Shown here: one piece after another, positions 10,842 through 49,768 of the stretch | Layout of the letters: every line of letters begins with the position of its first letter | How positions within the stretch are numbered: the first letter of the stretch is position 1 | From: a virus | Lineage: Duplodnaviria; Heunggongvirae; Uroviricota; Caudoviricetes | Direction: 5' to 3' (one strand) | Length of the DNA stretch: 64,000 nucleotides | Virus record (IMG/VR): IMGVR_UViG_3300045996_000667 | Location: 27,546 to 91,545 of that record | Notes under the pieces: generated by a model | Databases searched by the model: none | Seen by the model: the letters and a program-made list of their open reading frames with translations, nothing else | Told to the model about the DNA's origin: nothing | Translations under genes and position numbers: made by a program

Positions 10842-10870
10842 TTGACAAACACATGAATCTTGTGTATCAT
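10842..10870 (+). promoter_or_regulatory. sigma70-like promoter TTGACA-N17-TATCAT
   Basis: TTGACA at 10842, TATCAT at 10865; the GTG start of the next gene lies about 7 nt downstream, implying a leaderless transcript. Confidence 0.55.
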
Positions 10871-10876
10871 GGGTGA

Positions 10877-15122: not shown

Positions 15123-16109
15123 TTGCCACTAAAAGGTTTCAAATGTCCTGCTGGGACTCCTACTGAAGGTAACGAGAACAGCTTCGACCACTGCGTCAAC
15201 GTCTGCCCGCACCGCTGCCAGCCTCGCGGTGTCCTTAAGGTTATCGCTGACAGGGAATCAGGCAATGAGCACGCTGGAGACATGCTCAGCCCGACAGCCA
15301 TGTCAGGCTGCCCACGCAAACTCAAGCTGACACGCACTGTCGACTACTATGAGGAGCCGCGCAAGCTCTACTGGGCCACGCGCGGCGCCCTCTACCACGC
15401 CTTCCTCGAAGCTGAGCTCCCAGACGTTGTCCAGGAGACGAGGGTCTATAAGTACATCACCAAGGGGCCAATGGCTCCATGGCTCATCTCTGGCCGCATT
15501 GACTACTATGACAGGCTGCTCAAGCGGATCGAGGACTACAAGACCAAGGCTGACAAGGCCCTAACCTACCTCTACAAAGAGGATCCAGACGAGCAGTATG
15601 TCTGGCAGTTGAACGTCTACCGATGGCTCCTACACGGTGGCCACATCGGCAGCAAGGACGGCCCGCAGATCTTCTGGCCGGTCGAGTCGCTCCAGTTGCA
15701 CTACCTGTTCATGGACAGGGTTATCAGCACTGGCGTGCCATTCGTAGAGACTATCAGGCAGAAGACCTCGCCCAACTACGGCAAGAAGTATCGCAACGAA
15801 GTCAAGGGTTCCCGTAAGGCTGCGGGCACCAACGAGTGGGGCTATACGAACTGGCAGTTCACTATCAAGGTGCCAGACGTTCCAGTCTACTCCTACGATC
15901 AAGTCGAAGAATACCTCATCGAGCGCGGGCCTAAGCGGCGGCGCGGGTTCGCTGAGCCTGATTACATGCCAGATGGCGTGATCGGGGATCCCGACAAGGG
16001 TTGGGAATGCCGCTTCTGTCCAGTGACCCGTGAGTGCAAGGCTTACGAGGACGCTAAAGCCATTCAGTCTGCCCAGACTGACGACGGCTTTCAGGGTTTC
16101 TTAGGGTAA
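15123..16109 (+). CDS. Cas4/RecB-like PD-(D/E)xK exonuclease with Fe-S cysteines
   Basis: 'GRIDYYD...IEDYKTK' nuclease core; C-terminal 'CRFCPVTRECK' (Cx2Cx5C). Confidence 0.6.
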   Translation: MPLKGFKCPAGTPTEGNENSFDHCVNVCPHRCQPRGVLKVIADRESGNEHAGDMLSPTAMSGCPRKLKLTRTVDYYEEPRKLYWATRGALYHAFLEAELPDVVQETRVYKYITKGPMAPWLISGRIDYYDRLLKRIEDYKTKADKALTYLYKEDPDEQYVWQLNVYRWLLHGGHIGSKDGPQIFWPVESLQLHYLFMDRVISTGVPFVETIRQKTSPNYGKKYRNEVKGSRKAAGTNEWGYTNWQFTIKVPDVPVYSYDQVEEYLIERGPKRRRGFAEPDYMPDGVIGDPDKGWECRFCPVTRECKAYEDAKAIQSAQTDDGFQGFLG

Positions 16110-16118
16110 GGCAAGTAA

Positions 16119-16805
16119 GTGTCAACAGGTTTTGAAGGTTTCAAAGACGACCGCGAAGTTTTCGTGAAGTCGACCCGCGACAAGCGGATGCTCGCCCAAG
16201 GCCAGACGTCAGTCTCGACTGTCGGCTTTGATGATTTCCGTAAGGGATATTTCCTCGACCTCACCAACAAGCGTGAAGTCGGCAAGTCGATGGACGTGGT
16301 TGTGCTGCGCGTCGACACCAAGCGCGTGCTCTTCTACGACAAGAAGAACCCAGCGCCGCCTGGCCACAAGGGGCCTCGCTGCGCCTCAGATGACGGCATT
16401 CTCCCGTCGGCTCGCATCAAGAACCCTCAGGCTGACGAGTGCGCCAGTTGCGAGTTCGCCAACAAGGACATGGTCTACACGGTCATTGCTATGGACGTGA
16501 ACGACACACGATCCAAGAGCGAGCCGATCATCTTCGAAATCGAGTTCAAGAGCACGCAGCTGAAGATCGTCCGCGCCTTCGTGAAGTCCATCCAGGACCG
16601 CAAGAAGAACGCTCGAGACTACGTGGTCACCATGAAGTCGGAGATGCAGGAAGCCGTAAAGGACGGCCAGAAAGTAACCTGGTATGTGCCGCGCTTCGAC
16701 AGCATCGCTCCGGTGCCCAGCGACGTCAAGGCTGAGGTCGAGGCGGCGTACAACTCGGTCAGCGGCATCCTGCCGATCGAGGAAGACGAGGAACCGGCGT
16801 TCTAA
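16119..16805 (+). CDS. hypothetical protein
   Basis: ORF track. Confidence 0.55.
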   Translation: MSTGFEGFKDDREVFVKSTRDKRMLAQGQTSVSTVGFDDFRKGYFLDLTNKREVGKSMDVVVLRVDTKRVLFYDKKNPAPPGHKGPRCASDDGILPSARIKNPQADECASCEFANKDMVYTVIAMDVNDTRSKSEPIIFEIEFKSTQLKIVRAFVKSIQDRKKNARDYVVTMKSEMQEAVKDGQKVTWYVPRFDSIAPVPSDVKAEVEAAYNSVSGILPIEEDEEPAF

Positions 16806-22150: not shown

Positions 22151-22185
22151 TTGACACACACAAGGAGCTTGTGTATTATGTGTCT
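22151..22185 (+). promoter_or_regulatory. strong sigma70-like promoter TTGACA-N17-TATTAT
   Basis: Near-consensus -35 and -10 with exact 17-bp spacer; AGGAG SD before the ATG at 22220. Confidence 0.65.
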
Positions 22186-22219
22186 ATCGCTGACGGCAAC
22201 TAGCCCTCACAGGAGACAC

Positions 22220-23667: not shown

Positions 23668-23820
23668 ATGACACCATCTGAAAAAGACTACTACCGCTAC
23701 TACGGGGAGACAGCTACAGAATGCTGTGAACAGTGCGGCAGATGGCACGACATTAACAAGAATCCCTGCAACAGGAAACAGGCTGCCAAAGTAGCAGCCG
23801 ACTCTGGCCCCGTCGATTAG
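23668..23820 (+). CDS. small Cys-containing peptide
   Basis: 50-aa ORF 'MTPSEKDYYRYYGETATECCEQCGRW...'; its 3' end overlaps the tRNA-like element. Confidence 0.3.
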   Translation: MTPSEKDYYRYYGETATECCEQCGRWHDINKNPCNRKQAAKVAADSGPVD

Positions 23821-23876
23821 CGGCAGGTCGTGCCCTCTTAGAGGGTGAGACGCGGGTTCGAATCCCGCCGGGGCCG
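23806..23876 (+). tRNA. tRNA-like gene with atypical anticodon arm (possible anticodon UUA)
   Basis: Perfect 7-bp acceptor GGCCCCG/CGGGGCC; T-arm GCGGG-TTCGAAT-CCCGC; anticodon region folds as CCCTC-TTA-GAGGG rather than a 7-nt loop. Confidence 0.35.
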
Positions 23877-23914
23877 TGCTTACACAACGAACGAGGCGTC
23901 ACCGCACGCCTACA

Positions 23915-23929
23915 ATGCACAATGTGCAA
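23915..23929. repeat. palindrome variant ATGCACAATGTGCAA
   Basis: 36 nt upstream of tRNA-Leu. Confidence 0.8.
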
Positions 23930-23950
23930 GAGGTGTAAGGCAACTTTTTA

Positions 23951-24034
23951 GGGACTGTGGTGGAAAGGCATACACGGCGGTCTTAGGAACCGCTGGGGCA
24001 ACCCGTGAAGGTTCAAATCCTTTCAGTCCCACCA
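23951..24034 (+). tRNA. tRNA-Leu (anticodon UAG), class II
   Basis: Acceptor GGGACTG/CAGTCCC; AC stem GCGGT/ACCGC; loop CTTAGGA; 13-nt variable arm; T-loop TTCAAAT; encoded CCA. Confidence 0.6.
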
Positions 24035-24040
24035 ACTCTC

Positions 24041-24277
24041 ATGGATTACAAGCTTCCTGACGGAACTCGTACTGACTTCCATCTTCTCTATCTCGAGAAG
24101 TGGTCCAAGGCTGCGCAGAAGCTTGACAGCCTGTTCAAGCCGCTCGGGTATCGATGCAATGCATACGATCCTGACTTCTCTATGGTGAGCGACGAGAGGG
24201 TCAACGGCATGAAAATGTACCACTCATTCACGCTACCAGCTCATGTAGCGATGTTCTTGATATCCCAGGTGAAATAG
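24041..24277 (+). CDS. hypothetical protein
   Basis: ATG at 24041 in frame with track ORF 24005..24277. Confidence 0.5.
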   Translation: MDYKLPDGTRTDFHLLYLEKWSKAAQKLDSLFKPLGYRCNAYDPDFSMVSDERVNGMKMYHSFTLPAHVAMFLISQVK

Positions 24278-24278
24278 C

Positions 24279-24515
24279 GTGCGCAAGTATTTGGTTCCCA
24301 GCTTTACCGTTCTAGTAGCGGTCTGTGTTTTCTTCGCTTTCATCCCTACCACCACGGTACCGGAACTGCCGACAAGCCCTGAGGCGTTCATTGCTGATCG
24401 CACACCAAGCGCACCACTCGTTTTCTATTTCAACGAGGTAGTCTTGGAGACGCCGAAGCCACCAAAGCGCAAAGTCCGCGCGACGTACCGATACGAGCGG
24501 CGGTTCGATAAGTAA
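24279..24515 (+). CDS. small secreted/membrane protein
   Basis: GTG start; N-terminal hydrophobic segment. Confidence 0.5.
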   Translation: MRKYLVPSFTVLVAVCVFFAFIPTTTVPELPTSPEAFIADRTPSAPLVFYFNEVVLETPKPPKRKVRATYRYERRFDK

Positions 24516-24521
24516 CAATTC

Positions 24522-24602
24522 GGGGAATTGGCCCAGCCTGGTCTACGGCGCTCGCTTTGGGAGCGAGAAATATCGGGGGTTCGAATCCCTCATTCCCCAC
24601 CA
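24522..24602 (+). tRNA. tRNA-Pro (anticodon UGG)
   Basis: Acceptor GGGGAAT/ATTCCCC; D-arm TGGCCCAGCCTGGT resembles E. coli tRNA-Pro; AC stem CTCGC/GCGAG; loop TTTGGGA; encoded CCA. Confidence 0.65.
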
Positions 24603-24603
24603 C

Positions 24604-24690
24604 GGAGAGTCGGGCTATTGGCTGGCCAAGCAGTCTTGAAAACTGTCGCCGGTAAAACGGCTGGGGGTTCGATTCCCTCACTCTCCGCCA
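24604..24690 (+). tRNA. tRNA-Ser (anticodon UGA), class II
   Basis: Acceptor GGAGAGT/ACTCTCC; loop CTTGAAA; long variable arm CGCCGGTAAAACGGCT; T-loop TTCGATT; encoded CCA. Confidence 0.6.
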
Positions 24691-24698
24691 CTCTTTAA

Positions 24699-24775
24699 GC
24701 CACCGTAGCTCAATCCGGTAGAGCAGCACATTTGTAATGTGACGGTTGCGGGTTCGATTCCTGCCGGTGGCTCCA
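24699..24775 (+). tRNA. tRNA-Thr (anticodon UGU)
   Basis: Acceptor GCCACCG/CGGTGGC; D-arm TAGCTCAATCCGGTAGAGC; loop TTTGTAA; T-loop TTCGATT; encoded CCA. Confidence 0.65.
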
Positions 24776-24841
24776 TCCTACCTAATACATTAGCTATCCT
24801 GTTAGGGTAAGTATTCTGGGTATGTCCTGTAAGCTAGCGAC

Positions 24842-25147
24842 ATGCTCAAGAAACTAGGCTTGCTGGCTGCCGGGGCTGTGTTTGGAGTCCTCATCTCCTT
24901 CGCACCAACAGCCTACGCACAGCTCACCATCAACTCTGGCGCTGTCATCTCGACGGACGTGTATGGCAATACCGTCATCGGGAACGGTAATTCTGCCACT
25001 CTCTTCCGGTCATCCCTGGCCGCTCCTACCAACACCAGCAACGGCATGTGCTGGATTCAGATCACGGGGTCTGGTACACGCACAGCCGAAATCAAGTGCA
25101 ATGACAACGGCGACGTTGTCACGCTGGCACAGGTCGTCAACCCATAA
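24842..25147 (+). CDS. small secreted protein (signal peptide, AYA|Q)
   Basis: N-terminal 'MLKKLGLLAAGAVFGVLISFAPTAYA'. Confidence 0.55.
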   Translation: MLKKLGLLAAGAVFGVLISFAPTAYAQLTINSGAVISTDVYGNTVIGNGNSATLFRSSLAAPTNTSNGMCWIQITGSGTRTAEIKCNDNGDVVTLAQVVNP

Positions 25148-28100
25148 TGAATATCCGTAAGGTTCTCGCAGCTGCTATCCTCGCTCTCGGAGTCCTGACA
25201 GGACGAGCAGAAGCTGCCACTCTCACCGTCTGCGCGACAGGCTGCACCTACACGAACAGCCAGCTTCAGACCGCGCTCAATGCGGCCGTCGCCGGCGACT
25301 CGGTGCTCTTGCAGGCTGGCTTCACATACGTCGGCAACTACACGTTGCGGCGACACGGTGGGGCGTCCAATGTCACCGTCCGAACTGGCGTGACATCGAC
25401 TGGTAGCATTATCAGCCTCGGCTCGTTCCCTGCTGCTGGCGTTCGCATGACGAACGCGCTGGCCACGACATACAACCTGGCAATCCTGAAGTCCAATATC
25501 AACAACGAGCCAGCTCTCCGAACCGCTGATCCCAGCGCCGGCGTGGCTACTCAGTATTGGGCCATCAAGTGGATCAAGATCATCGCCGGCGGAACCGGAG
25601 GCGCGTTCTACGGAGGCGGCGACCTACTGCGGCTCGGTGACGACAGCAATAGCACCGTTACCCAGATCTCAGAGATTCCAAGCAACTTCACCCTCGAGCA
25701 GTTCGTCCTCGCTGGCGACCCTGTTAAGGGTCAGTTCCGTGGGCTGTCGCTCCACGCCAACAACGTCACCGTCAAGGACTGCACGATCCAGGACATCAAG
25801 TCTAGTGCAGAGGGTCAGGGCGTGTTCATTAACAGCTCTGAGGGTCCTTATACGATTGACAACTGCTACATCGTTGGTAACGGCGAGAACGTGATTGCTG
25901 GCGGCGCTAGCGGTGCAGCTCGCCCGTCAGTAACGGTATCAGCTTCTCCAGCCCCGACGACCACCTCGGCAACGTTGTCAACCTTCAATGGTCTGCGCGT
26001 TGGGAAGCATCTCACCTTCGACGTTACGTTGGGCGGCACGACCGTTGAGCAGCTCACGAAGATTGTGTCTTGCGGGACATCAGTAGACGGCGCGCTGTGT
26101 ACCAGTGCCAACGTTACATTTACCGCACTTGACGCAGCGCCGAACGTGGGCGGTGATGTGGACTGGGGTCCTTCGCCAGCCAACCTAACGTTTACTAGGA
26201 ACCTTGTAGAAAAGCCACTCGACTGGCGGAACCCGATTCTTGGTACACCACAGAATCCTACCGCTTCAGGAGTGGCAGGCGGAACACTGACTGCTGGCAA
26301 CTACTCGTATCGCGTTGTGGCGCGCATGGGCATCGCCAACGCTGCTACGGCTCGGTCAACGGCCTCTACAGAGGTAGCCGCGACACTGTCTGAAACTGGA
26401 TCCGTTCGAATCACCTGGAGTCCAGTGACCAATGCAGAAACCTACTACATCTACGGTCGAAGCTCTGGAGCTCAGAACGTTCGATTTAGCGTTACGACTT
26501 CTGCGTGCAGTGCGACGGTATGCACATACACGGACACAGGTTCGGCTGGCACTACAGAGAGCGTCCCCACTTCGACCGGAACGACGTGGTTCATTAAGAA
26601 TATTTTCGAACTGAAGCACATGGACACAGCCCTAGTTGAGGGCAATGTGTTCAGCGGCTCATGGGCTGACGGACAGACTGGATACGCCATCGTATTTACT
26701 GTTTCCAATACCAGTAATGGCAACGACTCCACCATCCTGCGCCGCGTGACGTTCCGAAATAACATCGTTAAGAACGCAGCTGGCGGTGTGCAGATCGGCG
26801 GGCGCGATCTCAGCTCTGGAGTTCCATCCGCACGAACAGAAGACTTGACGTTCCATAACAATCTGTTCTTTGACATGGGCACAAGCTTCGGAGCCTCTAA
26901 CCGAGTATTCATTATCACGACTCGTGCCCATGCCAATATCTACCCCGCTGGCACACCCATGGGGCCAAGGAACATCACGCTAACGCATAACACATTTGCC
27001 CAGACATCTGGCAATGCGTTTATCTGGTTCGACCTGTTCAAGACAATCGAACAGGCAGTCGAGAATATGACTGTTAGCAACAACATATTCTACAAGCTGG
27101 GCTATGGAATGACAGGTGGTAACAGTTGTGGAGAGGGTGACTTTACTAACGCCTCTACGACTGGATGCTGGACGATGCACGTGACGGGCACGAGGAGCTG
27201 GCTCAAGAACCTCGGCGCTGACATTACCTGCGCGAACTACCCAGGCGGCAGCGCTCAGAACTTCTGCCCGTCGACTGCTACGCTGAGGAACGAGTTCACT
27301 GACTTCGATAACGACAACTACCTGCTGAAGTCGACATCTCCGTATCACAACGCCGGATCTGACGGCACTGACCTCGGTGCCAATATCTCTGCCATTGCTG
27401 CCTTCACCAATGTCGCCCTGTCAGGAGATGCTACTGGCGGCACGCCGGTTGTTCCTCCTACTATCACGACGTCTTCGCTACCAAGCGGCAACACAAGCAC
27501 TAACTACTCGGCCACAATGACAGCCACTGGATGTTCTGGTAGCTGCTCGTGGAGTGTTAGCGGGCAGCCGACTGGCGTGACCATGAGCGCGGCTGGCGTG
27601 TTTGATGGACGTCCAACAGTTCCAGGCACCTACACGGTTGTAGTGACCGCGACTTCAGCTGGCGTATCTAGCAACGCTACGTATACAGTAACCATCACCA
27701 GCCCGACACCAGTTCCAGACGAACCTACGACACCTCGGGCGCTGCGGCCGTCAATGTGGAACGGCAATTATTGCCGGTCATTCGTCGGACCAACGGAGCC
27801 TGAAGAGAACTCCACCACGGCTCTTAAGGTCTGCGACACATGGTGGGACACGACCAATATCGCGTTCAAGGTTCTGCAGGCTACTGGACCAGTGAAGGTG
27901 TGGACCACAGTGAGCGGCGGCGGGTCTAGCACCCAGCCTGCAAGCGTGATGGTCAACTCGTCAACAGTCAACATTACGCCTGGTAACAGTGGCGCTTACG
28001 CTGAAATCGTTGGTTCGGCTAGGCGTCGGTTCGTGTATGACACGCAGAACTTTACCCAGATCTCAATCGTTCTCACTCACCAGGCGTCAGACCTCAGCGC

Positions 28101-28314
28101 TGTGACGTTCAAGGTTGAGTATTGGAATGGTAGCGCATGGGCAGATGCAGGAGTATCTCAGACCGGTGGCACCGGCGACACGCTGATTCAGTCTGCCTAT
28201 GGAACGCTAGCATCCGGTGCTCGAGCCGCCAATACAATCTTCCGCGTTGTTGCGGCACATACCGGAACTGGTTCCGCTACTAGCATCAACAACCTTCAGA
28301 TCCTGTTCCGATAA
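25147..28314 (+). CDS. large signal-peptide protein with right-handed beta-helix repeats and C-terminal Ig-like domain (candidate tailspike/depolymerase or surface glycanase)
   Basis: N-terminal 'AILALGVLTGRAEA'; PbH1-like repeats ('NNIVKNAAGGVQIGG', 'TFHNNLFFD', 'LTHNTFAQTSGN'); 'putative Ig' segment 'LPSGNTSTNYSATMTATGCSGSCSWSVSG...GTYTVVVTATS'. Confidence 0.7.
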   Translation: MNIRKVLAAAILALGVLTGRAEAATLTVCATGCTYTNSQLQTALNAAVAGDSVLLQAGFTYVGNYTLRRHGGASNVTVRTGVTSTGSIISLGSFPAAGVRMTNALATTYNLAILKSNINNEPALRTADPSAGVATQYWAIKWIKIIAGGTGGAFYGGGDLLRLGDDSNSTVTQISEIPSNFTLEQFVLAGDPVKGQFRGLSLHANNVTVKDCTIQDIKSSAEGQGVFINSSEGPYTIDNCYIVGNGENVIAGGASGAARPSVTVSASPAPTTTSATLSTFNGLRVGKHLTFDVTLGGTTVEQLTKIVSCGTSVDGALCTSANVTFTALDAAPNVGGDVDWGPSPANLTFTRNLVEKPLDWRNPILGTPQNPTASGVAGGTLTAGNYSYRVVARMGIANAATARSTASTEVAATLSETGSVRITWSPVTNAETYYIYGRSSGAQNVRFSVTTSACSATVCTYTDTGSAGTTESVPTSTGTTWFIKNIFELKHMDTALVEGNVFSGSWADGQTGYAIVFTVSNTSNGNDSTILRRVTFRNNIVKNAAGGVQIGGRDLSSGVPSARTEDLTFHNNLFFDMGTSFGASNRVFIITTRAHANIYPAGTPMGPRNITLTHNTFAQTSGNAFIWFDLFKTIEQAVENMTVSNNIFYKLGYGMTGGNSCGEGDFTNASTTGCWTMHVTGTRSWLKNLGADITCANYPGGSAQNFCPSTATLRNEFTDFDNDNYLLKSTSPYHNAGSDGTDLGANISAIAAFTNVALSGDATGGTPVVPPTITTSSLPSGNTSTNYSATMTATGCSGSCSWSVSGQPTGVTMSAAGVFDGRPTVPGTYTVVVTATSAGVSSNATYTVTITSPTPVPDEPTTPRALRPSMWNGNYCRSFVGPTEPEENSTTALKVCDTWWDTTNIAFKVLQATGPVKVWTTVSGGGSSTQPASVMVNSSTVNITPGNSGAYAEIVGSARRRFVYDTQNFTQISIVLTHQASDLSAVTFKVEYWNGSAWADAGVSQTGGTGDTLIQSAYGTLASGARAANTIFRVVAAHTGTGSATSINNLQILFR

Positions 28315-28799
28315 TGCCAGTAACTCATCAGAAAGTCAGTGGTCAGTCCGATGGGGCTGACCCTGCTGACATCCAGCCCTCAGACTGGAACGCAACTCAC
28401 TTCTCGCCAGCATGGACAGTACTGGCAGCCTCTACAGGTGCGCTCGCAACGTGGTCAGTCATGCCGTCCTCGCTGACAGAGTATCTCGGCATTGACCGCG
28501 CGTTCAGGGTGCAGTATGACCTGACATATGCTACTCAGATGCGAATCCTTGCCCAAGTGGTCACGCCTGGCCCGACTGGAGCAGTGCTGCGAGTGCAGTA
28601 CTGGGATGGTTCGGCATGGCAGTATGCTGACGGCGCTACTGGACCTAGCGTAGCGATCGACGTGGCTGGCGATAAGGCCTCATCGTGGGTAACGCTGGTG
28701 GCTGGAGCCAAGCAGGACCGCATCCTTAGGATTGTTGGTCTGAATGGCGACAGCGTGGCCAGCCCTGTGTTCGGACTCGTAGCAGTTCAGGTGAAGTAA
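28314..28799 (+). CDS. paralogue of the C-terminal module of the beta-helix protein
   Basis: 'VQYWDGSAWQYADGA' vs 'VEYWNGSAWADAGVS'; similar C-terminal beta segment. Confidence 0.55.
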   Translation: MPVTHQKVSGQSDGADPADIQPSDWNATHFSPAWTVLAASTGALATWSVMPSSLTEYLGIDRAFRVQYDLTYATQMRILAQVVTPGPTGAVLRVQYWDGSAWQYADGATGPSVAIDVAGDKASSWVTLVAGAKQDRILRIVGLNGDSVASPVFGLVAVQVK

Positions 28800-29050
28800 T
28801 GCATACAGACGACCAGCTCCTAGCTTTCAATAACCAGATCGCCGGCAAAGCAGTCAAGTGGTGGGAGGTGCATAGCAGCGCTATGGGCCATGACCAGGAC
28901 GAGCTGTTCTTGCAGCTTAGTGATGGCTCGGTTGTTCGAATCTTCGCAGAACCTAGACAGTTCGGTGCTGCGCTAAGGATCGAGGCTCACGCGCGACTAC
29001 CTATTGGTAGACCGGTACGGAATCTACCGGAGGAAGCGAACAGACAGTAA
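28799..29050 (+). CDS. hypothetical protein
   Basis: ORF track. Confidence 0.45.
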   Translation: MHTDDQLLAFNNQIAGKAVKWWEVHSSAMGHDQDELFLQLSDGSVVRIFAEPRQFGAALRIEAHARLPIGRPVRNLPEEANRQ

Positions 29051-29430
29051 TGCCGTTCTACGCTGGAGCCTTTGACAACAATGCCTTCTACGTTGGCGGC
29101 GTTCCAGTTCCTGGCATGTGCCAAGTCACTGGCTCCTTCTACAACCCAAAGACTGGCCTGAAGATCATGTCTGGCCAGCTTCGGATTACTCCTAACGGGT
29201 TCAAACCGTTCGCCGGCTCTATCATCAGTCCATTGGTTGCCATCGTTGAGATTCCTCTTTCAGGCAATCTCGACTTCTATCTGGCTCCAAGCGAGGATGA
29301 CGGAGTCGACTACACCGTCGAACTCGACCCTGACCCTTCCAGCCCTGTACCACTCGCCATGCGTCCAGGCTACTTCAAGCGGACTTGGGAGATTCCTAAC
29401 CAAGCTTCCATCACCATTGCGGAGCTCTAA
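29050..29430 (+). CDS. hypothetical protein
   Basis: ORF track; TAATG coupling. Confidence 0.5.
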   Translation: MPFYAGAFDNNAFYVGGVPVPGMCQVTGSFYNPKTGLKIMSGQLRITPNGFKPFAGSIISPLVAIVEIPLSGNLDFYLAPSEDDGVDYTVELDPDPSSPVPLAMRPGYFKRTWEIPNQASITIAEL

Positions 29431-29651
29431 TGGGTAGGGCTGCCAGAGCTAACCTCTTGGCCGCTCGGGCAGAGTGTGACGGCGACTGTCGGCGCGAGAA
29501 GAAGCTGACAGAACTGGTCCCTTACCTGTTAGCCACTGACGGTACCCACTACTACGTTTGCACAATGTGCAAGCCCGCCTTCGAGCGAGAATTCATCGGC
29601 CAGCCCATCCGACCCTGTCAGTGCGAACGGTGCTTGACAACCACAAAATAA
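29430..29651 (+). CDS. zinc-ribbon small protein
   Basis: 'CDGDC...CTMCKP...CQCERC'; contains the palindrome at 29558. Confidence 0.45.
   Translation: MGRAARANLLAARAECDGDCRREKKLTELVPYLLATDGTHYYVCTMCKPAFEREFIGQPIRPCQCERCLTTTK
29558..29572. repeat. palindrome TTGCACAATGTGCAA
   Basis: Encodes CTMCK. Confidence 0.9.
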
Positions 29652-29698
29652 ACGTGTATTGTTGTTCCTGTCGATAGTTGACATTGCCCAGGACGGCA

Positions 29699-29740
29699 AG
29701 GCCTGACAGTGCTGGGAGGCTTCTGTCAGGCCTGTTTTTT
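29699..29740 (+). terminator. Rho-independent terminator
   Basis: 10-bp perfect stem GGCCTGACAG/CTGTCAGGCC followed by TTTTTT. Confidence 0.75.
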
Positions 29741-29827
29741 GGCGTAGTATACCGTTAGGGAGGCGGGCCGGTCTGTAGAACCGGCGGCCTAGTGCCTCGC
29801 GTGGTTCGACTCCACGATGCGCCACCA
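29741..29827 (+). tRNA. tRNA-Tyr (anticodon GUA), class II
   Basis: AC stem CCGGT/ACCGG; loop CTGTAGA; long variable arm; T-arm CGTGG-TTCGACT-CCACG; encoded CCA; D-arm assignment uncertain. Confidence 0.5.
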
Positions 29828-29843
29828 ACTTGTGTCTTTAGGT

Positions 29844-29927
29844 GTGGCCGATGGTAGTGTTGGACGCCGAGAGGCCTGCCACCGGACTGTGAATCCGGCC
29901 ACGCGGGTTCGATTCCCGCCGGTCACC
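29844..29927 (+). tRNA. tRNA-His-like (anticodon GUG) with about 12 extra nt in the D region
   Basis: Acceptor GTGGCCG/CGGTCAC with discriminator C; AC arm CCGGA-CTGTGAA-TCCGG; T-arm GCGGG-TTCGATT-CCCGC; 31 nt between acceptor and AC stem instead of ~19; no CCA. Confidence 0.35.
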
Positions 29928-30155
29928 CCTAAGGGCGCAACTGAGTCAGTCGTCTAGAAGCCTAGGATACTCGTCTCCAAAACCTGTGACGCTGGTGCGA
30001 ATCCAGCCTGACTCGCCAATGTATAAATTTCTCGCATTCATCGACGCTGCTTTTTGCGCTGTTAAAGGACACAAGGTCCAGTGGCGAGCAAGCGAAGCCA
30101 AGTGCTGCGTTATCTGTGACACGTGCAACCTTCTGCATTGGTGTAGACAAGTCGG

Positions 30156-31398: not shown

Positions 31399-31608
31399 AT
31401 GCTTGTCGTTAATCTGCTAGCCCTGCTAGCTCTGCTCTGTCTCGCCACGTTCGCGGTGTCCGTTGGCGCGTCAGTGGCCACCCAGTTGGCCATGTATTAC
31501 AGCGCCATCGTGGCCGTGTTCGTCATCCTTGGCACCGTCGTTCTGGTAGGCGCAGGACTCTCTGCCACCCTGCCCGTTCTCCTTCGAAAGGTCTTCAAGC
31601 GTGCTTAA
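31399..31608 (+). CDS. small 2-TM membrane protein (possible NfeD-like partner)
   Basis: Hydrophobic 69 aa immediately upstream of the SPFH gene. Confidence 0.5.
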   Translation: MLVVNLLALLALLCLATFAVSVGASVATQLAMYYSAIVAVFVILGTVVLVGAGLSATLPVLLRKVFKRA

Positions 31609-32455
31609 GAAGTTCGCCGTTCTCGCAGTCGTGGCAATGATGGCCACCGCCTGCACCACCGTCAAGCCTGGCACCGTTGGCATCGAGGTCAACAACTACG
31701 GCGCTGGCCGTGGCGTTCAGGACTATCCGATTCGGACAGGTCGCGTTATCTATAACCCGATCACGACCGACGTCTACGTGTTCCCGACGTCGCAGCAGCG
31801 CGCCCAGTGGTCGAAGTCCTCAGAAGAGGGCGGCGCGAACACGTCCGTCGAGTGCCGATCAAAGGAGGGCACGCAGGTCGCTCTCGATATCGCGGTCGCT
31901 TATCAGTTCACAGCCGACAAGGTGCCGGCGCTGTTCGTGAAGTTCCGCCAGTCCGCAGATGAAATTACGAGCAGCTATGTGCGGGATCAGGTTCGCAAGT
32001 CTCTGTGCTCAGTCACCGAGAAGATGCCGATTCTGGACATCCTCGGCCCGCGACTGACCGAGGTTGGCGACTCTGCCAAGAACCTCGTCAACACCGATAC
32101 GGCCGCCTACGGCATCACGTTCGACTACGTGAACATCATCGGCAAGCCGCACGTTGCATCGTCCGTCGAGCAGGCGATCAACAACGTCATCCAGCAGGTT
32201 CAGGCAGCCAATCAGGCCGAGGCCAAGACTCGCCAGATCACAGCCGAAGCTGCGCAGGCCATCGAGCGCGCCAAGGGCGAGGCACAGTCCATCGAGCTGA
32301 CAGCGCTGGCCCAAGCTAAGGCGAACGAAATCATCGCCAAGTCGCTGGAGCAGTTTGGCGACAAGGTGCTGCAGTCGAAGGCCATCGAGAAGTGGAACGG
32401 CGTATTGCCGACCGTAACAAGCACCGGAGCGGTGCCTTTCATTCCTGTCAAGTAA
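31601..32455 (+). CDS. SPFH/band-7 (flotillin/HflK-like) lipoprotein
   Basis: Lipobox-like 'MMATAC'; SPFH-like core '...QVALDIAVAYQFTADKVPALFVKF'; Ala/Glu-rich C-terminal coiled coil. Confidence 0.6.
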   Translation: MLKKFAVLAVVAMMATACTTVKPGTVGIEVNNYGAGRGVQDYPIRTGRVIYNPITTDVYVFPTSQQRAQWSKSSEEGGANTSVECRSKEGTQVALDIAVAYQFTADKVPALFVKFRQSADEITSSYVRDQVRKSLCSVTEKMPILDILGPRLTEVGDSAKNLVNTDTAAYGITFDYVNIIGKPHVASSVEQAINNVIQQVQAANQAEAKTRQITAEAAQAIERAKGEAQSIELTALAQAKANEIIAKSLEQFGDKVLQSKAIEKWNGVLPTVTSTGAVPFIPVK

Positions 32456-33155: not shown

Positions 33156-33307
33156 TGACATACACGGTAACTCCTCTCAACGAGCATGAGATCTGCCAGG
33201 TCCATGAACTCTGTGACGACGAGACTGGCGACATCATGGTCATCGTGGAATACATCGACGGCGACCTTCAGGCTTACCTAGACAAGCTCAGTGACGACGA
33301 AGACTAA
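33155..33307 (+). CDS. small acidic protein
   Basis: ATG at 33155 in track ORF 33083..33307; ends DDED. Confidence 0.35.
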   Translation: MTYTVTPLNEHEICQVHELCDDETGDIMVIVEYIDGDLQAYLDKLSDDED

Positions 33308-34787
33308 TGTGGCTCGTGGTACCTTCAACGTGCTTTCCCTCTGCAGCGGTGCGGGAATGCTGGATCTCGGACTCAGACTCGCTGTTCCAAGCGCTCGTAC
33401 AGTCTGCTACGTTGAAAGGGAAATCAGCGCAGTCCAAGTCTTGGCGGCGCGCATACAAGACGGAAGCCTGGACGCAGCGCCTGTTTGGTCAGATCTGCAC
33501 TCCTTCGACGGCCGCCCTTGGCGTGGAGTCGTGGATTGCATCATTGGCGGCTACCCGTGCCAGCCATTCTCCATTGCAGGCAAGCAGCGAGGTAAGCACG
33601 ACCCTCGCCACCTCTGGCCAACCATCGCAGACCTTGTTCGACTTGTTCGACCAGCCGTCTGCTTCTTCGAGAACGTCGCCCAGCACCTCAACAACGGCTA
33701 CCCAGAAGTCCACGAGGGACTGGAAGCAATTGGCTACCGACCTGAAGTCGGATTGTTTGAGGCGTTCGAAGTTGGCGCAAGCCATGCGCGACGTCGACTC
33801 TTCATCCTTGCGGTGGAAGACTCCGACCGCGCTGTCGAAACCCTCAGACGGCTCATACAACCCGCCTGGGCAAGCGCAGCTCGACTTGCAAGCGAAGAAC
33901 TGGGCCACGCCTACCGCGCGCATCTGGAAGGGCAGCGGAACAAAGGTCGTTCGCGACGACGGCAAGTCTCGGATGGACATGCTGGACTATCAGGCGGAAC
34001 AGGGCTTCTCCACCTGGCCCACGCCGATGGTGCCGAACGGCGGGCGCTCGATTGCGCATGCGGAAATTGTGGGGGCCACTGTCTACCACAACGGGAAGAA
34101 GGTGCAACGGGATCTTGGAGCGGCTGCCAAGATGTGGCCGACACCTCACGCGAACTGCACGAACGGAGCGGGTCGTCAGGGACGGCAAGGCGGGGAGAAC
34201 ATCCAGACAGCGGCATCGGTCTGGCCGACACCTCGAGCTTCGGACAACGAGAACCGCACGACACAGAATGCGCCCTCTCACGGAGTCTCCCATGGAGCGA
34301 CTCTCGCGGGGACGGCGGGGTCATGGCAGACGATTACTGCGACGGATGCCAAGAGTCGTGGATACAGCTACAGCAACGGGGATCACTCGAAGCCGTTCCT
34401 GTCGCTGACGGGGGAGGCGCAGACGTGGCCGACGCCGGTAGCGCAGGACGACAACAAGACGCCGGCGGCGCACATGGCGATGAAGGCGCGGATGAAGGGC
34501 GGGCCGAGGAAGAAGATTACATCTCTGTCCGTGATTTCTCAAGCCTTGGAATCTTTGCCCCAGGACCTAACCATCCTGTCTGGGCAGATATCATCCGAGA
34601 CTTCCCAGAATACTCCCCCGCCCTCACGGCGGAAGCTCAATCCAGCTTTCGTGACGTGGTTGATGGGCCTGCCCCGGAACTGGCTCTCAGGCGGCTCGAT
34701 CAGCTTCGAATTTTGGGAAACGGCGTCGTCCCAGCTGCTGCTGCAAGAGCTTTCTTATATCTGGGAAGGAAGCTAGTCGGTGTTTAA
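33291..34787 (+). CDS. C5-cytosine DNA methyltransferase, coding sequence split over two frames (frame 0 to +1 to frame 0)
   Basis: Frame 0 carries motif I 'LSLCSGAGMLDLG', IV 'GYPCQPFSIAGK', VI 'FFENV', VIII 'HARRRLFILAV' and C-terminal motif X 'LGNGVVPAAAARAF'. The +1 frame (track ORF 33307..34776) carries 7 'W(P/A/K)TPTAxD' repeats with synonymous codon variation, then motif IX 'VTWLMGLPRNW'. The frame-0 middle is Arg/Gly-rich junk. Confidence 0.7.
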   Translation: MTTKTNVARGTFNVLSLCSGAGMLDLGLRLAVPSARTVCYVEREISAVQVLAARIQDGSLDAAPVWSDLHSFDGRPWRGVVDCIIGGYPCQPFSIAGKQRGKHDPRHLWPTIADLVRLVRPAVCFFENVAQHLNNGYPEVHEGLEAIGYRPEVGLFEAFEVGASHARRRLFILAVEDSDRAVETLRRLIQPAWASAARLASEELGHAYRAHLEGQRNKGRSRRRQVSDGHAGLSGGTGLLHLAHADGAERRALDCACGNCGGHCLPQREEGATGSWSGCQDVADTSRELHERSGSSGTARRGEHPDSGIGLADTSSFGQREPHDTECALSRSLPWSDSRGDGGVMADDYCDGCQESWIQLQQRGSLEAVPVADGGGADVADAGSAGRQQDAGGAHGDEGADEGRAEEEDYISVRDFSSLGIFAPGPNHPVWADIIRDFPEYSPALTAEAQSSFRDVVDGPAPELALRRLDQLRILGNGVVPAAAARAFLYLGRKLVGV

Positions 34788-34937: not shown

Positions 34938-35510
34938 ATGATTACACTGTTCAGAGACGCAGCGCTGGAAGAGATTGCCAAGATCACTGTCAACTTCCGC
35001 AATGTGGCGATCGCCGGCGGCTACGCTGCCTGCCCTGACAAGGCTGGCGACATTGACGTGTGGCTGCTAGACCAAGACATTAAGGGCAGCACTTGGAACC
35101 TGCAACACAGCATAGCCCTTCAGATTGACCGGACTGTCAATGCTTTCCGCAGGTTCCCAGATGATGTCCCTGAGCATGTCCAGAAGGATTATCAGGATAC
35201 CACCTTCGCATTGCTACGCGCCTATCACAGCAAGGTGTCTGGCAAGACCGTGCAGATTCTAGCGGCACCTGAGAAGACCTTACAGGAACTGGTAAACCGG
35301 TTCGACGTGTCCACGCATGCCATCGGCTACATGCTGGCAGACCCGTTCACACTTGTAAAGGGTAAGAACTGGACACCGATTGACCAGCAGCCGAGGGCCT
35401 GTCATCTCAATACGCCGGACAGTACTCGCGAGCGACTCGTGAAGCTGTGCGCACGCTACGGATTTCAACTGGACAAGGCTGACGAGTTCCTCTTGGACCT
35501 GTCCACGTAA
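34938..35510 (+). CDS. nucleotidyltransferase-fold protein
   Basis: 'AIAGGYAAC...AGDIDVWL' resembles the minimal NTase motif G[GS]..DhD. Confidence 0.5.
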   Translation: MITLFRDAALEEIAKITVNFRNVAIAGGYAACPDKAGDIDVWLLDQDIKGSTWNLQHSIALQIDRTVNAFRRFPDDVPEHVQKDYQDTTFALLRAYHSKVSGKTVQILAAPEKTLQELVNRFDVSTHAIGYMLADPFTLVKGKNWTPIDQQPRACHLNTPDSTRERLVKLCARYGFQLDKADEFLLDLST

Positions 35511-35680
35511 TGTCGAACTACCAGTTCGCTGCGGTTCTGGCAGGAATCCCAGCGACACTAGGCATGGCACATCTGGCCATGTATCTGCGCTTTGGTATAC
35601 CTGCCGAAGGCTGGGCGTCGTTAACCTGCTTGTTCCTGTCAGTGCCAGGATGGGTCAAGCTTTTCAGGACTAAGAATAAG
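35510..35680 (+). CDS. small 2-TM membrane protein
   Basis: 56-aa hydrophobic ORF; TAAGTGA coupling to the next gene. Confidence 0.35.
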
Positions 35681-36978
35681 TGAGCTATCAGGCAATAGTT
35701 ACTAGTTTGCACAATGTGCGAAAGCATCCCAACGCGGATCGCTTGAACCTCGCCACTGTGCATGGCCACCAGGTGGTGGTCGGCCTCGAGGCCAAGGAAG
35801 GTGATCGAGGCGTGTTCTTCCCCTGCGACGGGCAACTCTCCGAGGCCATGGCCGAGGCTAACGACCTTGTCGGCTACACTGACCCAGCCACCGGAGAGAA
35901 GAAGGGTGGCTTCTTCGCGAAGAATCGCAGGGTGCGAGCGCAGAAGTTTCGTGGTGAGAAGTCTGACGGCTTCTTCATCGAGCTTGACAAATTGGCCTTT
36001 ACCGGCTATGATCTGTCTACTCTGGAGGACGGCTTCGCCTTCACAGAGCTAGGCGGCGTTCAGGTCTGTCAGAAGTATTACACTCCTGCCACGCGGGCCA
36101 AGATGTCCAGACCTGGTCAGGCGCGCAAGCAGCGCAACCTGATCTTCCCTGAGCACATCGACACAGCCCAGTTCCGCTACAACTCACATCGCATCCCTGT
36201 CGGCGCGGTCGTGTACATCACCGAGAAGGCGCATGGCACTTCTGGCAGGTATGGCAATGTGGCAGAGACGACGCCGATGTCAGGCTGGCAGAAGTTCTGG
36301 GCCAAGCTGGCAGGATTCATCGGAAGGTTTGACCCTGCAACAGAGTTCTTCGGCTATCAGCATCTGTCAGGCTCTCGCCGGGTAGTGCTGGACAAGCAGC
36401 CAGAAGCTGCCAGTTACTACGGGACCAACAGTTTCCGCGAGGACGTCGTCGCCGGCATCGAGCTGCACAAGGGCGAAGTGCTCTACTTCGAGATTGTTGG
36501 CGACGTGGCAGAAGGTCAGCCCATCATGCCTGTCCACACTGTCAAGGATGAACTGAAGGACATCCAGAAGCAGTATGGCAAGAAGATGGATTACAGGTAT
36601 GGCACATTGTCAGGCGAACACAAGATGCTTGTGTATCGTGTGACTCGGCTCAACGAGGACGGCGTCGAAACAGACCTGTCGTGGCAACAGGTCAAGCAGC
36701 GGTGCAAGGAGCTGGGCCTGCAGACTGTGCCGGAACTGGACATGATGTTCACGACTGACGATAGTGACATCTCTCGCCAGATGTTGACAGACACTGTCGA
36801 GGCGCTAACAGACGGCCCGTCAACACTGGACAGCTCGCACATTCGCGAGGGTGTCGTGGTGCGCGTCGAGTCTGACCAGGGCACGTGGTTCTTCAAGAAC
36901 AAGTCGTGGGCCTTCGGCGTACTGGAAGGCTACATCAAGGACTCGGACACCTACGTGGATACCGAGGAAGCAGCGTGA
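35680..36978 (+). CDS. RNA ligase (Rnl2-like) with N-terminal tRNA-binding (CsaA/Trbp111-like) domain
   Basis: N-terminal 'HPNADRLNLATVHGHQVVVGLEAKEGD...FPCDG'; ligase motif I 'ITEKAHGTSGR' (cf. T4 Rnl2 'EKIHGTN'); 'EGVVVRVE...FFKNKSWAF' motifs IV/V. Confidence 0.75.
   Translation: MSYQAIVTSLHNVRKHPNADRLNLATVHGHQVVVGLEAKEGDRGVFFPCDGQLSEAMAEANDLVGYTDPATGEKKGGFFAKNRRVRAQKFRGEKSDGFFIELDKLAFTGYDLSTLEDGFAFTELGGVQVCQKYYTPATRAKMSRPGQARKQRNLIFPEHIDTAQFRYNSHRIPVGAVVYITEKAHGTSGRYGNVAETTPMSGWQKFWAKLAGFIGRFDPATEFFGYQHLSGSRRVVLDKQPEAASYYGTNSFREDVVAGIELHKGEVLYFEIVGDVAEGQPIMPVHTVKDELKDIQKQYGKKMDYRYGTLSGEHKMLVYRVTRLNEDGVETDLSWQQVKQRCKELGLQTVPELDMMFTTDDSDISRQMLTDTVEALTDGPSTLDSSHIREGVVVRVESDQGTWFFKNKSWAFGVLEGYIKDSDTYVDTEEAA
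35707..35721. repeat. palindrome variant TTGCACAATGTGCGA
   Basis: Codons 10-14 of the RNA ligase gene. Confidence 0.85.
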
Positions 36979-47784: not shown

Positions 47785-48255
47785 CTAGACCGTTGCTAGC
47801 AGCGTGTCCATCGCTAGCCACACTGCGCGAATCCCGCCTGCTTGATAGTGCTGTTGGCACTCCTTGACCGACATGCCAGGCAGTTCAACATGCGGTTTGT
47901 CTACGAACTTCCAGTCCCCACCCCACGCCAAGCCAACAGCCTTGGCAGCATCGCCAATCTCTGACCAGACGCTATCCTTGGCAACCCAGTCAGGCTTGCC
48001 AGCCACGTAGGGACACACGTCTACGGCCAAGCCGTAGTTGTGATTCGACTCGCCACCCTTGGCCTTGGTGACGATCTTGCCAGGCGCTGTTCGGCCCTTG
48101 GCATACAGGGCATCCTGCTCTGCAAAGGTTCGCAGGCCCTGAACGACTTCTATCTGGATGCTGTAGTTGTCCATCAAGGCTTCTGCCATCTGATAGACCC
48201 TGCTAGCGAGCACAGGATGAACCTGCTCCAGCCTCTTGATAGATGTCTTAGTCAC
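47785..48255 (-). CDS. endolysin, peptidase M15 (L-Ala-D-Glu/VanY-like)
   Basis: 'GGESNHNYGLAVDV' and 'WGGDW..DKPHVE' Zn-binding motifs. Confidence 0.75.
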   Translation of the reverse strand: MTKTSIKRLEQVHPVLASRVYQMAEALMDNYSIQIEVVQGLRTFAEQDALYAKGRTAPGKIVTKAKGGESNHNYGLAVDVCPYVAGKPDWVAKDSVWSEIGDAAKAVGLAWGGDWKFVDKPHVELPGMSVKECQQHYQAGGIRAVWLAMDTLLATV

Positions 48256-48787
48256 GCGAGTTCATGACCTCGTGGAACAACTCGGTGCCGGCAATCGCGA
48301 GGTCGCCAACTCCCCTGTTGTTCTTGATGTAGTAGTCGTACGGATAGTCATCGAGCTGGACTTCCGTAATGTGGTTTGGATCCCTGTCAGCCGTTACGAA
48401 GACAGTTCCGTCAGGGTTATAGCGAGTCACGTTCACCATGACACCGCCGACAGACCTGATAAACTCGGCCTCGTTGGTCTGCCTGACATCGGTCACTAGG
48501 GCAACCGGCGGCCGCATCTCCTCGATGAACCAGTAGAGCGCCTTAATCCAGACCAGAGGGTCAGCCCTGCGAAGGTCCTGTCCGACGAACTGCAGGAGGC
48601 TGCCATCCTTCTTGGTCATGCCGTAGCTTGACCGGCAGACAGCCTTGAGAGCATCTGCAAACGCGAACCGGCGAACCTGTCGAGGGTGCATCGAGACGAT
48701 CCCCTCGGCTACTGTGTCCTTGCCGTGCCTAGCCTTGTGACCAAGGCCGATGAACGTGACGCCTGGAATTGGCGCGAACTCAGCCAA
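48248..48787 (-). CDS. deoxynucleoside monophosphate kinase (T4 gp1-like)
   Basis: 'VTFIGLGHKARHGKDTVAEGIVS' vs T4 Dnk 'LIFLSGVKRSGKDTTADFI'. Confidence 0.65.
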   Translation of the reverse strand: MAEFAPIPGVTFIGLGHKARHGKDTVAEGIVSMHPRQVRRFAFADALKAVCRSSYGMTKKDGSLLQFVGQDLRRADPLVWIKALYWFIEEMRPPVALVTDVRQTNEAEFIRSVGGVMVNVTRYNPDGTVFVTADRDPNHITEVQLDDYPYDYYIKNNRGVGDLAIAGTELFHEVMNSRD

Positions 48788-48977
48788 GGTCTTTGGTCAT
48801 CCAGTGAATGTCGATGTCCCAGTCGTTGAGTTCCTTGCCAGGCAACACTTTCACTAAATCTAGCGGCTTGAACTTCTTAGCGGCTTCCTCTGCTTCTGCG
48901 AACGAGTTTGCCGTTACGTCAACTCCCACCTGAAGCACGACTTTAAACGTTACGTGAACTTTCTGTTTCTCTGCCAT
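48780..48977 (-). CDS. hypothetical protein
   Basis: ORF track. Confidence 0.45.
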   Translation of the reverse strand: MAEKQKVHVTFKVVLQVGVDVTANSFAEAEEAAKKFKPLDLVKVLPGKELNDWDIDIHWMTKDLG

Positions 48978-49768
48978 TAGCCCTTGTAAACCTTGCCATT
49001 TACCGCAAAGCGGTTGTTAGTAATAACGACTACGGAGTCGTTGTAGGACCCGTCTGGGAAGATGTAGCCGTAGAGGAAGCCTGTGAGCCAGCTGTTAGGC
49101 GCGCTTCTGCCATAGCCAGGAGCCTTTTTGCAAAGGCACGGCACAGCGATCGAAGTGCGGGCGTCTGTAATATCAATAGCGCTAATCTTCGTAGCACTCT
49201 GAAAAGTGTGGAAATGGCCATAGCGGATCGACCTTTCGTAGGCGAGGATGGCGGCATTCGCGTGGTAGCGCCCGCCCAACGTGTCGCCGTGCATGAAGTG
49301 CAGCTTGCCAATCTTGGCAACGCCGCCCTGAGGGATGACCGTCCAGCCGGACTCTGTCAGCCCGAGGAGCTGGTCGATGTCGACAATGCCTTCCAGACCT
49401 GGGTAGTCCTCGAGGAGGTCTAGGAGAAAGCGCTCATGATTGCCAAGGATGATGATCTTCTGGGCGTCACCGGCCACTTCGTTGATAGGAGCGAGGAGGC
49501 CGTCCTTGGCGTGGCGGGTATCCTCGACAACGCGAAGCCCCTCGATGGACTTGCGCTTGCTCTTGTTCCAATGGGAAACGGCGCCCAGATCGAGCAGGTC
49601 GCCACCGTGAATGAAGATGTCTGGCTTGAAATCCGAGGCGAACTGCAGGACCGCGTCAATCGCCCGCGCGTCGTGCATCTCGACCTTCTTGCCCTGCTTA
49701 TTCTCAGACCCGTAGTGCGTGTCGGTGATGAAAATAAACTTCTTGGGCTCCTTGTTCTTTTCTGCCAA
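48977..49768 (-). CDS. calcineurin-like metallophosphoesterase
   Basis: 'ITDTHYG', 'HGGDLLD', 'ILGNHERF', 'GHFH' motifs. Confidence 0.75.
   Translation of the reverse strand: MAEKNKEPKKFIFITDTHYGSENKQGKKVEMHDARAIDAVLQFASDFKPDIFIHGGDLLDLGAVSHWNKSKRKSIEGLRVVEDTRHAKDGLLAPINEVAGDAQKIIILGNHERFLLDLLEDYPGLEGIVDIDQLLGLTESGWTVIPQGGVAKIGKLHFMHGDTLGGRYHANAAILAYERSIRYGHFHTFQSATKISAIDITDARTSIAVPCLCKKAPGYGRSAPNSWLTGFLYGYIFPDGSYNDSVVVITNNRFAVNGKVYKG

Follow-up and report, generated by a model that had tools for sequence, protein, structure and literature searches.

The open reading frame (ORF) at positions 35680-36978 of the window, the 64,000-nucleotide stretch of phage DNA that we analyzed, encodes an RNA ligase, and this assignment is firm. 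The product is a classic ATP-dependent polynucleotide ligase with Rnl5 architecture and falls within a large phage clade, PHROG 968; from sequence comparison, we place it in a divergent clade that is sister to Rnl5 and do not regard it as an orthologue of DraRnl. The enzyme probably reseals broken RNA, tRNA above all. Our confidence is high in its identity and mechanism and moderate in this biological role.

A preliminary description of this DNA had presented the gene as an Rnl2-like RNA ligase fused to a tRNA-binding domain. The ORF was real and lay on the plus strand at exactly the coordinates given there. The label, on the other hand, had to be corrected to an Rnl5-type ligase, as a built-in N-terminal OB domain is a hallmark of Rnl5 and the family had already been annotated as RNA ligase. 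Thus, the protein is an ordinary member of a large annotated phage family and a plausible RNA-repair enzyme, not a new type of fusion. The features discussed below are listed in Table 1.

Table 1. Positions in the window of the ligase gene, its domains and motifs, and other features considered in this work
Feature	Position	Strand	Details
Rnl5-type ATP-dependent RNA ligase gene	35680..36978	+	GTG start, 432 aa
N-terminal OB-fold domain, residues 1-135	35680..36084	+	HPNADRL motif (16-22), invariant D50
Nucleotidyltransferase (adenylyltransferase) domain	36175..36906	+	residues about 166-409
Motif I EKAHGTS, residues 182-188	36223..36243	+	K183, H185, G186, T187, S188 invariant in 37 sequences
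Motif III region EVLYFEIVG	36475..36501	+	E266, E271, G274 invariant (alignment)
Motif IV REGVVVR	36844..36864	+	E390, G391, R395 invariant (alignment); aligns with NgrRnl REGLVF (HMMER)
Motif V KNKS	36895..36906	+	K406, K408 invariant (alignment)
Acidic C-terminal tail DTYVDTEEAA, short, conserved	36949..36975	+	D427, E429 invariant; E430 nearly
25-nt element ACACAAG-AT-GCTTGTGTATCGTGTG	36618..36642	+	hairpin ACACAAG-ATG-CTTGTGT and TATCGT -10-like hexamer
Palindrome TTGCACAATGTGCGA, one copy of the TTGCACAWTGTGCAA family	35707..35721	.	within codons 10-14
Two tRNA clusters, eight tRNAs	23805..30018 (23805-24775, 29741-30018)	+	ARAGORN
Calcineurin-type metallophosphoesterase	48977..49768	-	Pfam Metallophos 1.3e-9; phrog_221 2.5e-29
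dNMP kinase	48248-48787	-	
HD_4 protein, candidate 2',3'-phosphoesterase	13497-14042		
ATP-dependent DNA ligase	7654-8913		PF01068 3.4e-22

The ligase gene and its start codon

The GTG start codon of the ligase gene overlaps the stop codon of an upstream 57-aa ORF as GTGA. The JGI metagenome annotation (P0001) gives a shorter product of 420 aa that begins at a GTG at 35716. Because the N-terminal sequence MSYxAIV was conserved across 36 aligned homologues, with Y3 and A5 invariant, the start at 35680 is the better choice. A search of GenBank phages yielded no nucleotide match to the ligase gene or to the surrounding 25 kb, and the phage is known from metagenomes only (JGI 3300044648).

Assignment to the Rnl5 family

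The Pfam RNA_ligase profile (PF09414), one of the searches proposed in the preliminary description, matched residues 178-400 at 1.9e-9, which is above the cut-off, and PHROG 968 "RNA ligase" matched the full length of the protein at 1.2e-63. The NCBIfam equivalog model for DraRnl/DRB0094 (TIGR02306) aligned at 1.4e-13 over residues 9-190 only, with 50.5 bits against a cut-off of 151 bits. The Rnl5 definition, the phage homologues, and the role of the N-terminal domain have been described previously, and in this architecture an N-terminal OB module precedes a C-terminal nucleotidyltransferase domain to which nothing further is appended (PMC4408790, PMC7261155).

Among solved structures, sequence searches reached only the Naegleria gruberi RNA ligase entries, via the N-terminal domain; the catalytic domain alone produced only chance matches to PDB sequences. 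Since the catalytic domain matches nothing solved by sequence, the motif-by-motif alignment to NgrRnl is based on fold and conservation instead of a superposition of residues. An AlphaFold model computed from 37 sequences was confident (pLDDT 90.4), and a Foldseek search with the whole model placed NgrRnl first (4e-17).

The family proved to be large. A profile search recovered 4945 representatives (50% identity clusters) at E<=1e-3 and 1423 at E<=1e-30. Full-length relatives were found by tblastn in 379 GenBank phages (296 of them mycobacteriophages), most of which carried the annotation "RNA ligase," and the best match, at 40% identity, was in a Vibrio jumbo phage. Homologues of DraRnl in Aeromonas, Caulobacter, Mycobacterium, and Sinorhizobium phages were noted earlier by the Shuman laboratory (PMC4408790).

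The catalytic domain

All six nucleotidyltransferase motifs were invariant in the alignment, with K183, E271, Y319, E390, K406, and K408 among the invariant residues, and motifs Ia (GSRRV) and IIIa (LVYRV) were present and conserved. Motif I and the later ligase motifs were found and conserved as the preliminary description had claimed, and its comparison of motif I with that of Rnl2 was borne out as well, as the motif is of the KxHGTS type. Of 71 family members encoded at viral loci, 70 had this type. K183 is the lysine predicted to accept AMP. After K408 of motif V come only 24 residues, which form one helix and the acidic tail, so the ligase lacks a C-terminal domain. Acidic tails are common across the ligase family.

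The N-terminal OB domain

The N-terminal domain carries the sequence HPNADRLNL at residues 16-24. In Pfam, it gave a weak, sub-threshold match to the PHA02142 OB-fold domain (PF21189, 1.4e-4, residues 7-98). An AF2 model of the domain had a pLDDT of 91, and the top 13 Foldseek matches to this model were all NgrRnl (9e-7 to 8e-6), followed only by OB folds of the tRNA_bind class. Invariant D50 aligned with Asp53 of NgrRnl. For Arg4 and Lys121 of NgrRnl, whose counterparts take a superposition to place, K132 is a candidate.

It had been claimed that the N terminus matches the CsaA/Trbp111/EMAP-II tRNA-binding fold. The HPNADRL motif was present and the fold class was shared; however, the tRNA_bind profile (PF01588) that was named as a check gave no match at E<=1, and the profile of the domain reached PheRS-beta only at E 1.1 and over 21 residues. 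The sequence link of the OB domain to tRNA_bind is confined to the HPNADRL motif, and the domain itself is the usual N-terminal domain of Rnl5 enzymes.

Work on NgrRnl indicates what such a domain does. The NgrRnl domain contacts the ATP gamma-phosphate and a metal via Arg4, Asp53, and Lys121, and its deletion cripples adenylylation but not the sealing of a pre-adenylylated nick (PMC7261155, PMC4408790). Its demonstrated role is to aid ligase adenylylation and not to recognize tRNA (PMC7261155). Trbp111-type folds bind RNA 3' ends (PMC11286949), and the OB domain of the phage ligase may have an added RNA-binding role. The phage domain ties the Rnl5 N-terminal domain to tRNA-binding OB folds more clearly than NgrRnl does.

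Neighbors of the ligase gene in related viral loci

ORFs were called and clustered in 80 viral loci that contained a ligase homologue, and neighbors were counted within 10 kb. These loci are related to one another and not phylogenetically independent, and the counts are raw numbers with no background rate set against them. Of the 80 loci, 46 had a fusion of a P-loop kinase (AAA_33) and an HD domain (Pnk-HD; phrog_505 "polynucleotide kinase"), 40 a Pol-beta nucleotidyltransferase (phrog_388), 29 metallophosphoesterases, 22 a Ro-like DUF2828/vWA protein, and 32 one or more tRNA genes (five or more in 14). In mycobacteriophage Lumos, a kinase of the Pnk-HD cluster is located 2.8 kb upstream of the ligase gene and nine tRNAs are located downstream. 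The pattern supports an RNA-repair role for the ligase family, and the family is tied to end-healing enzymes and tRNA arrays in that they are often encoded adjacent to it.

The end-healing cassette accompanied distant homologues (35-38% identity), but neither the closest relatives (55-60%) nor the phage studied here showed it. The phage has one fixed gene order in common with the three relatives closest to it (55-60% identity), in which the ligase gene is followed by two conserved small ORFs, primase-helicase, and ThyX, and no repair partners were found near the ligase in the three relatives. The ligase gene of this lineage thus lies a short way upstream of the primase-helicase gene, within a replication module that is conserved, and this position fits another nucleic-acid repair role equally well.

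Possible partners in this phage

The phage's own tRNA set, part of the pathway first proposed, was confirmed as eight tRNA genes. The two clusters end 5.7 kb upstream of the ligase gene, and their products are possible ligase substrates or functional partners.

The identities previously given to the metallophosphoesterase and the dNMP kinase also held. The metallophosphoesterase gene is located 12 kb from the ligase gene on the opposite strand, beside endolysin and dNMP kinase genes (lysis and nucleotide-metabolism genes). It is at best a weak candidate for 3'-end healing, with no positional link to the ligase. As a member of the ligase-associated phosphoesterase clusters it was rejected, as its match to one of them reached only E 0.003. 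The HD_4 protein was linked to the ligase neither by position nor by homology to ligase-associated clusters. An upstream nucleotidyltransferase-like ORF at 34938-35510 (phrog_1614, 3e-7) was considered as a conserved RlaP-like partner and discarded, as it was present in no other ligase locus and did not match the ligase-associated nucleotidyltransferase cluster.

The statement that no polynucleotide kinase could be recognized held for the window and for the 82.6 kb examined. Cluster HMMs found no homologue of the Pnk-HD or nucleotidyltransferase clusters in the window. A strict P-loop search of the window revealed no such kinase, as the only strict Walker A motif was that of the primase-helicase, and the precomputed Pfam annotation contained no polynucleotide kinase across positions 8857-91472 (82.6 kb) of the 124,145-nucleotide contig. 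Therefore, the healing-and-sealing pathway proposed with the phosphoesterase was incomplete: no kinase was found for it, and the phosphoesterase gene was distant and on the other strand. That this lineage has the ligase without the kinase that usually accompanies it makes one ask which host nuclease the ligase answers.

Two further genes concern DNA joining. Because the phage has a separate ATP-dependent DNA ligase, the RNA ligase is not needed for this task, and the idea that it is the phage's sole ligase was rejected. A Ku gene is located at contig positions 15302-16165, just outside the window.

DNA elements inside the gene

The preliminary description had reported a promoter-like element inside the ligase gene at 36606-36640. 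The element is present, and its position is shifted from, but overlaps, this interval (Table 1). One near copy was found at 22158, with none expected by chance. The 7-bp hairpin and a TATNNT hexamer are common to the element at 36618 and to sites at 10849 and 22158, and the latter two are good sigma-70-type promoters with TTGACA, a 17-nt spacer that contains the hairpin, and TATCAT or TATTAT. The 36618 element was rejected as an internal promoter because it has no -35 hexamer, lies on conserved motif IIIa codons (the peptide encoded is HKMLVYRV), and was absent from the promoter scan.

The palindrome reported at codons 10-14 was real and was one of 13 TTGCACAWTGTGCAA sites in the window (21 strand matches versus 0.38 expected). 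These sites are mostly intergenic or close to gene starts, and a regulator of the phage probably uses the palindrome as an operator.

Proposed mechanism and biological role

The invariant motifs and the fold suggest the three-step chemistry of ligases. Lys183 of motif I would attack ATP to form ligase-AMP, and the N-terminal OB domain would close over the active site and, as its NgrRnl counterpart does, help to orient pyrophosphate, the leaving group. The AMP would then pass to a 5'-phosphate end, and a 3'-OH RNA end would attack and seal the break. Going by DraRnl, NgrRnl, and Rnl2, the enzyme most likely acts on a break, such as a nick, whose ends are kept together by a duplex or stem. We infer this substrate from relatives at 17-24% identity, since a literature search turned up no published biochemistry on any protein of the phage clade (PHROG 968).

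In vivo, the job of the enzyme would be to reseal broken RNA, tRNA above all, during infection, which would counter host ribonucleases and complement the phage tRNA genes. As no kinase or dedicated phosphatase partner was evident, we propose that the ends are healed by a further factor or that the breaks already have 3'-OH and 5'-phosphate ends, the kind that PIN/VapC-type metal-dependent nucleases produce. The anti-defense and tRNA-repair reading offered at the outset is plausible, but it is not new: papers on mycobacteriophages have interpreted the combination of ligase, polynucleotide kinase, and tRNAs as tRNA repair and counter-defense (PMC5511906, PMC13148394). Several studies have interpreted phage ligase, Pnk, and RlaP in terms of RNA repair (PMC7824862, PMC12776372, PMC5511906), and a comparative study of jumbo phages followed the same repair logic (PMC7824862).

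The main rival to RNA repair is that the ligase seals DNA nicks with a ribo-patch, in which a 3'-OH end with a few ribonucleotides lies beside a 5'-phosphate DNA end. Replication of the phage, processing of primers, repair of breaks, or circularization of the genome could give rise to such nicks. This role was proposed for the Deinococcus Rnl5 enzyme. For DraRnl to act, a duplex nick must present at least two 3' ribonucleotides, and when the enzyme is deleted, reassembly of the genome after irradiation is delayed (PMC5397189). The fixed order of ligase, primase-helicase, and ThyX in the phage and the three relatives closest to it, with no RNA-repair partners nearby, is consistent with ribo-patch sealing, as is the presence of Ku and an ATP-dependent DNA ligase in the phage. 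However, the phage already has a dedicated DNA ligase, about 39 kb separate Ku from the ligase, and the neighbors conserved in the family at large comprise enzymes that heal RNA ends, Ro-like proteins, and tRNA arrays. Furthermore, the Lumos ligase occupies the same replication-module position and has both Pnk and tRNAs, so the two roles cannot be told apart by position. We regard ribo-patch sealing as unlikely for the phage ligase.

The idea that the OB domain is a dedicated tRNA-binding module, which would make the enzyme a tRNA-specific ligase that acts in healing and sealing with the calcineurin-type phosphoesterase, appeared doubtful. The profile results for tRNA_bind and PheRS-beta argued against such a module, as did the findings that the homologous domain of NgrRnl serves adenylylation and that NgrRnl seals generic nicked duplexes (PMC7261155, PMC4408790). 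The location of the phosphoesterase gene by endolysin and dNMP kinase, and the lack of a kinase in the DNA covered, spoke against the pathway. A related idea, which we put forward as speculation and consider improbable, is that the Trbp111-like OB domain of the phage clade, with its HPNADRL motif, kept or regained RNA-end or tRNA binding. The enzyme would then be a self-sufficient tRNA ligase that reseals the 3'-OH/5'-phosphate breaks made by metal-dependent anticodon nucleases (PIN/VapC type) without a kinase-phosphatase partner; if true, this would explain why the phage lineage has the ligase alone.

Finally, a misread DNA ligase or mRNA capping enzyme is disfavored as highly improbable: motifs I-V are common to all covalent nucleotidyltransferases and the phage's real DNA ligase also weakly matches Pfam RNA_ligase, but no Pfam DNA-ligase or capping-enzyme profile matched the protein at E<=1.

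Comparison with known systems

Among known enzymes, the phage protein is closest to NgrRnl of Naegleria gruberi (PDB 5COT) and DraRnl of Deinococcus radiodurans (DRB0094). The three share an OB N-terminal domain, a C-terminal nucleotidyltransferase domain, and the absence of a C-terminal domain. In contrast to these enzymes, to which it is 17-24% identical, the phage protein is about 90 residues longer, with insertions in the catalytic domain, keeps HPNADRL in the OB domain, and has a conserved acidic C-terminal tail. Its motif I is KxHGTS, whereas that of canonical Rnl5 is KxDG, and a His occupies the position of the metal-binding Asp172 of NgrRnl.

Members of the mycobacteriophage "RNA ligase" phamily (for example, Lumos gp93 and LeBron gp85) are full-length homologues with 32% identity and are equal to the phage protein in length and motifs. 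The Lumos/LeBron-type ligases are encoded in early or replication regions close to tRNA arrays, and LeBron also encodes Band-7-like and Ro-like proteins (PMC13148394). The mycobacteriophages have a Pnk-HD-type polynucleotide kinase close by, whereas the 82.6 kb examined of the phage studied here contains none.

The motif I of T4 RNA ligase 2 and kinetoplastid REL1 is of the E-K-x-H-G-T-N/S type, which is common to the phage EKAHGTS. These enzymes have an N-terminal catalytic domain and a signature helical C-terminal domain, whereas the phage protein has neither, and superposition on Rnl2-family structures (T4 Rnl2/REL1) covered only about 181-196 residues. With the OB domains of Trbp111, CsaA, EMAP-II, and PheRS-beta B2, the phage protein has the fold in common, with no significant profile match; unlike the Trbp111-class domains, the phage domain belongs to the active site of a ligase.

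Putative regulatory elements in the phage genome and the ligase gene

The palindrome TTGCACAWTGTGCAA, 13 to 16 bp long, occurred at 13 sites in the window, and we observed 21 strand matches in the window versus the 0.38 that were expected. Most of the sites were intergenic or located no more than about 50 nt from gene starts, and one copy was found in codons 10 to 14 of the ligase gene. The palindrome looks like an operator for a regulator encoded by the phage.

Two strong σ70-type promoters were also identified, and the 17-nt spacer of each contained a 7-bp hairpin (ACACAAG nnn CTTGTGT). Three additional copies of this hairpin, as well as a match to the σ70 consensus within the ligase gene, are listed in the table.

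Coordinates of the features (window positions unless a contig is named)
Feature	Position	Description
Palindrome TTGCACAWTGTGCAA sites	2258, 5902, 11918, 15093, 18022, 23916, 29559, 35708, 40965, 44933, 46268, 54316, 63689
Strong σ70-type promoters (2)	10849-10881; 22158-22190	TTGACA + TATNAT, 17-nt spacer
Other hairpin copies (3)	1648, 18060, 36618	Without a good -35 hexamer
σ70 consensus match inside ligase gene	35984-36012, sense strand	11/12; TTGACA, 17 nt, TATGAT
tRNA, anticodon TTA (ochre suppressor)	23805-23877	ARAGORN prediction
SPFH/Band-7 gene	31601-32455	3.2 kb upstream of ligase
C5 DNA methyltransferase ORF	33291-34787	498 aa; Pfam match to N-terminal motifs
Second ORF, different frame	33307-34776	489 aa; completely overlaps the methyltransferase ORF
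ORF directly upstream of ligase	34938-35510	Pol-beta-type nucleotidyltransferase motif GG...DIDVW
ATP-dependent DNA ligase of the phage	7654-8913
Ku homologue	Contig Ga0456369_0000067, 15302-16165 (L089 6446-7309)	Outside the window
Small HD_4 (RelA/SpoT-type HD) phosphohydrolase	13497-14042

The sequence of the anticodon-TTA tRNA was regular and cloverleaf-like. This predicted ochre suppressor stood in contrast to the stop codon usage of the phage, as TAA was the most common stop codon (40 of 89 ORFs when ORFs were chosen greedily).

Inteins in the ligase family

Some members of the ligase family were 600 to 816 aa long (P0134, P0168, and P0187, and also P0139, P0171, P0184, and P0197) because an intein was inserted exactly at motif I. 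A LAGLIDADG homing endonuclease was often present in these inteins.

Genes in the ligase neighborhood and elsewhere in the phage

Approximately nine other viral loci had a homologue of the SPFH/Band-7 gene close to the ligase. Mycobacteriophage LeBron is likewise listed as having a Band-7-like gene (PMC13148394). The ORF directly upstream of the ligase matched phrog_1614 (3e-7) and had no Pfam match; none of the other ligase loci among those examined carried a counterpart.

The C5 DNA methyltransferase ORF had a GNG motif close to its end, and an unusual insert, approximately 250 residues long, lay between this motif and the N-terminal motifs. The overlapping 489-aa ORF contained repeated WPTP motifs and yielded no Pfam match. 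Possible causes of this arrangement are frameshifting, a target-recognition region of an unusual kind, and a frame that is open by chance.

The HD_4 protein may hydrolyze alarmones or act as a different phosphoesterase. Finally, the DNA ligase and Ku pair of the phage was reminiscent of the end-joining genes found in some mycobacteriophages.
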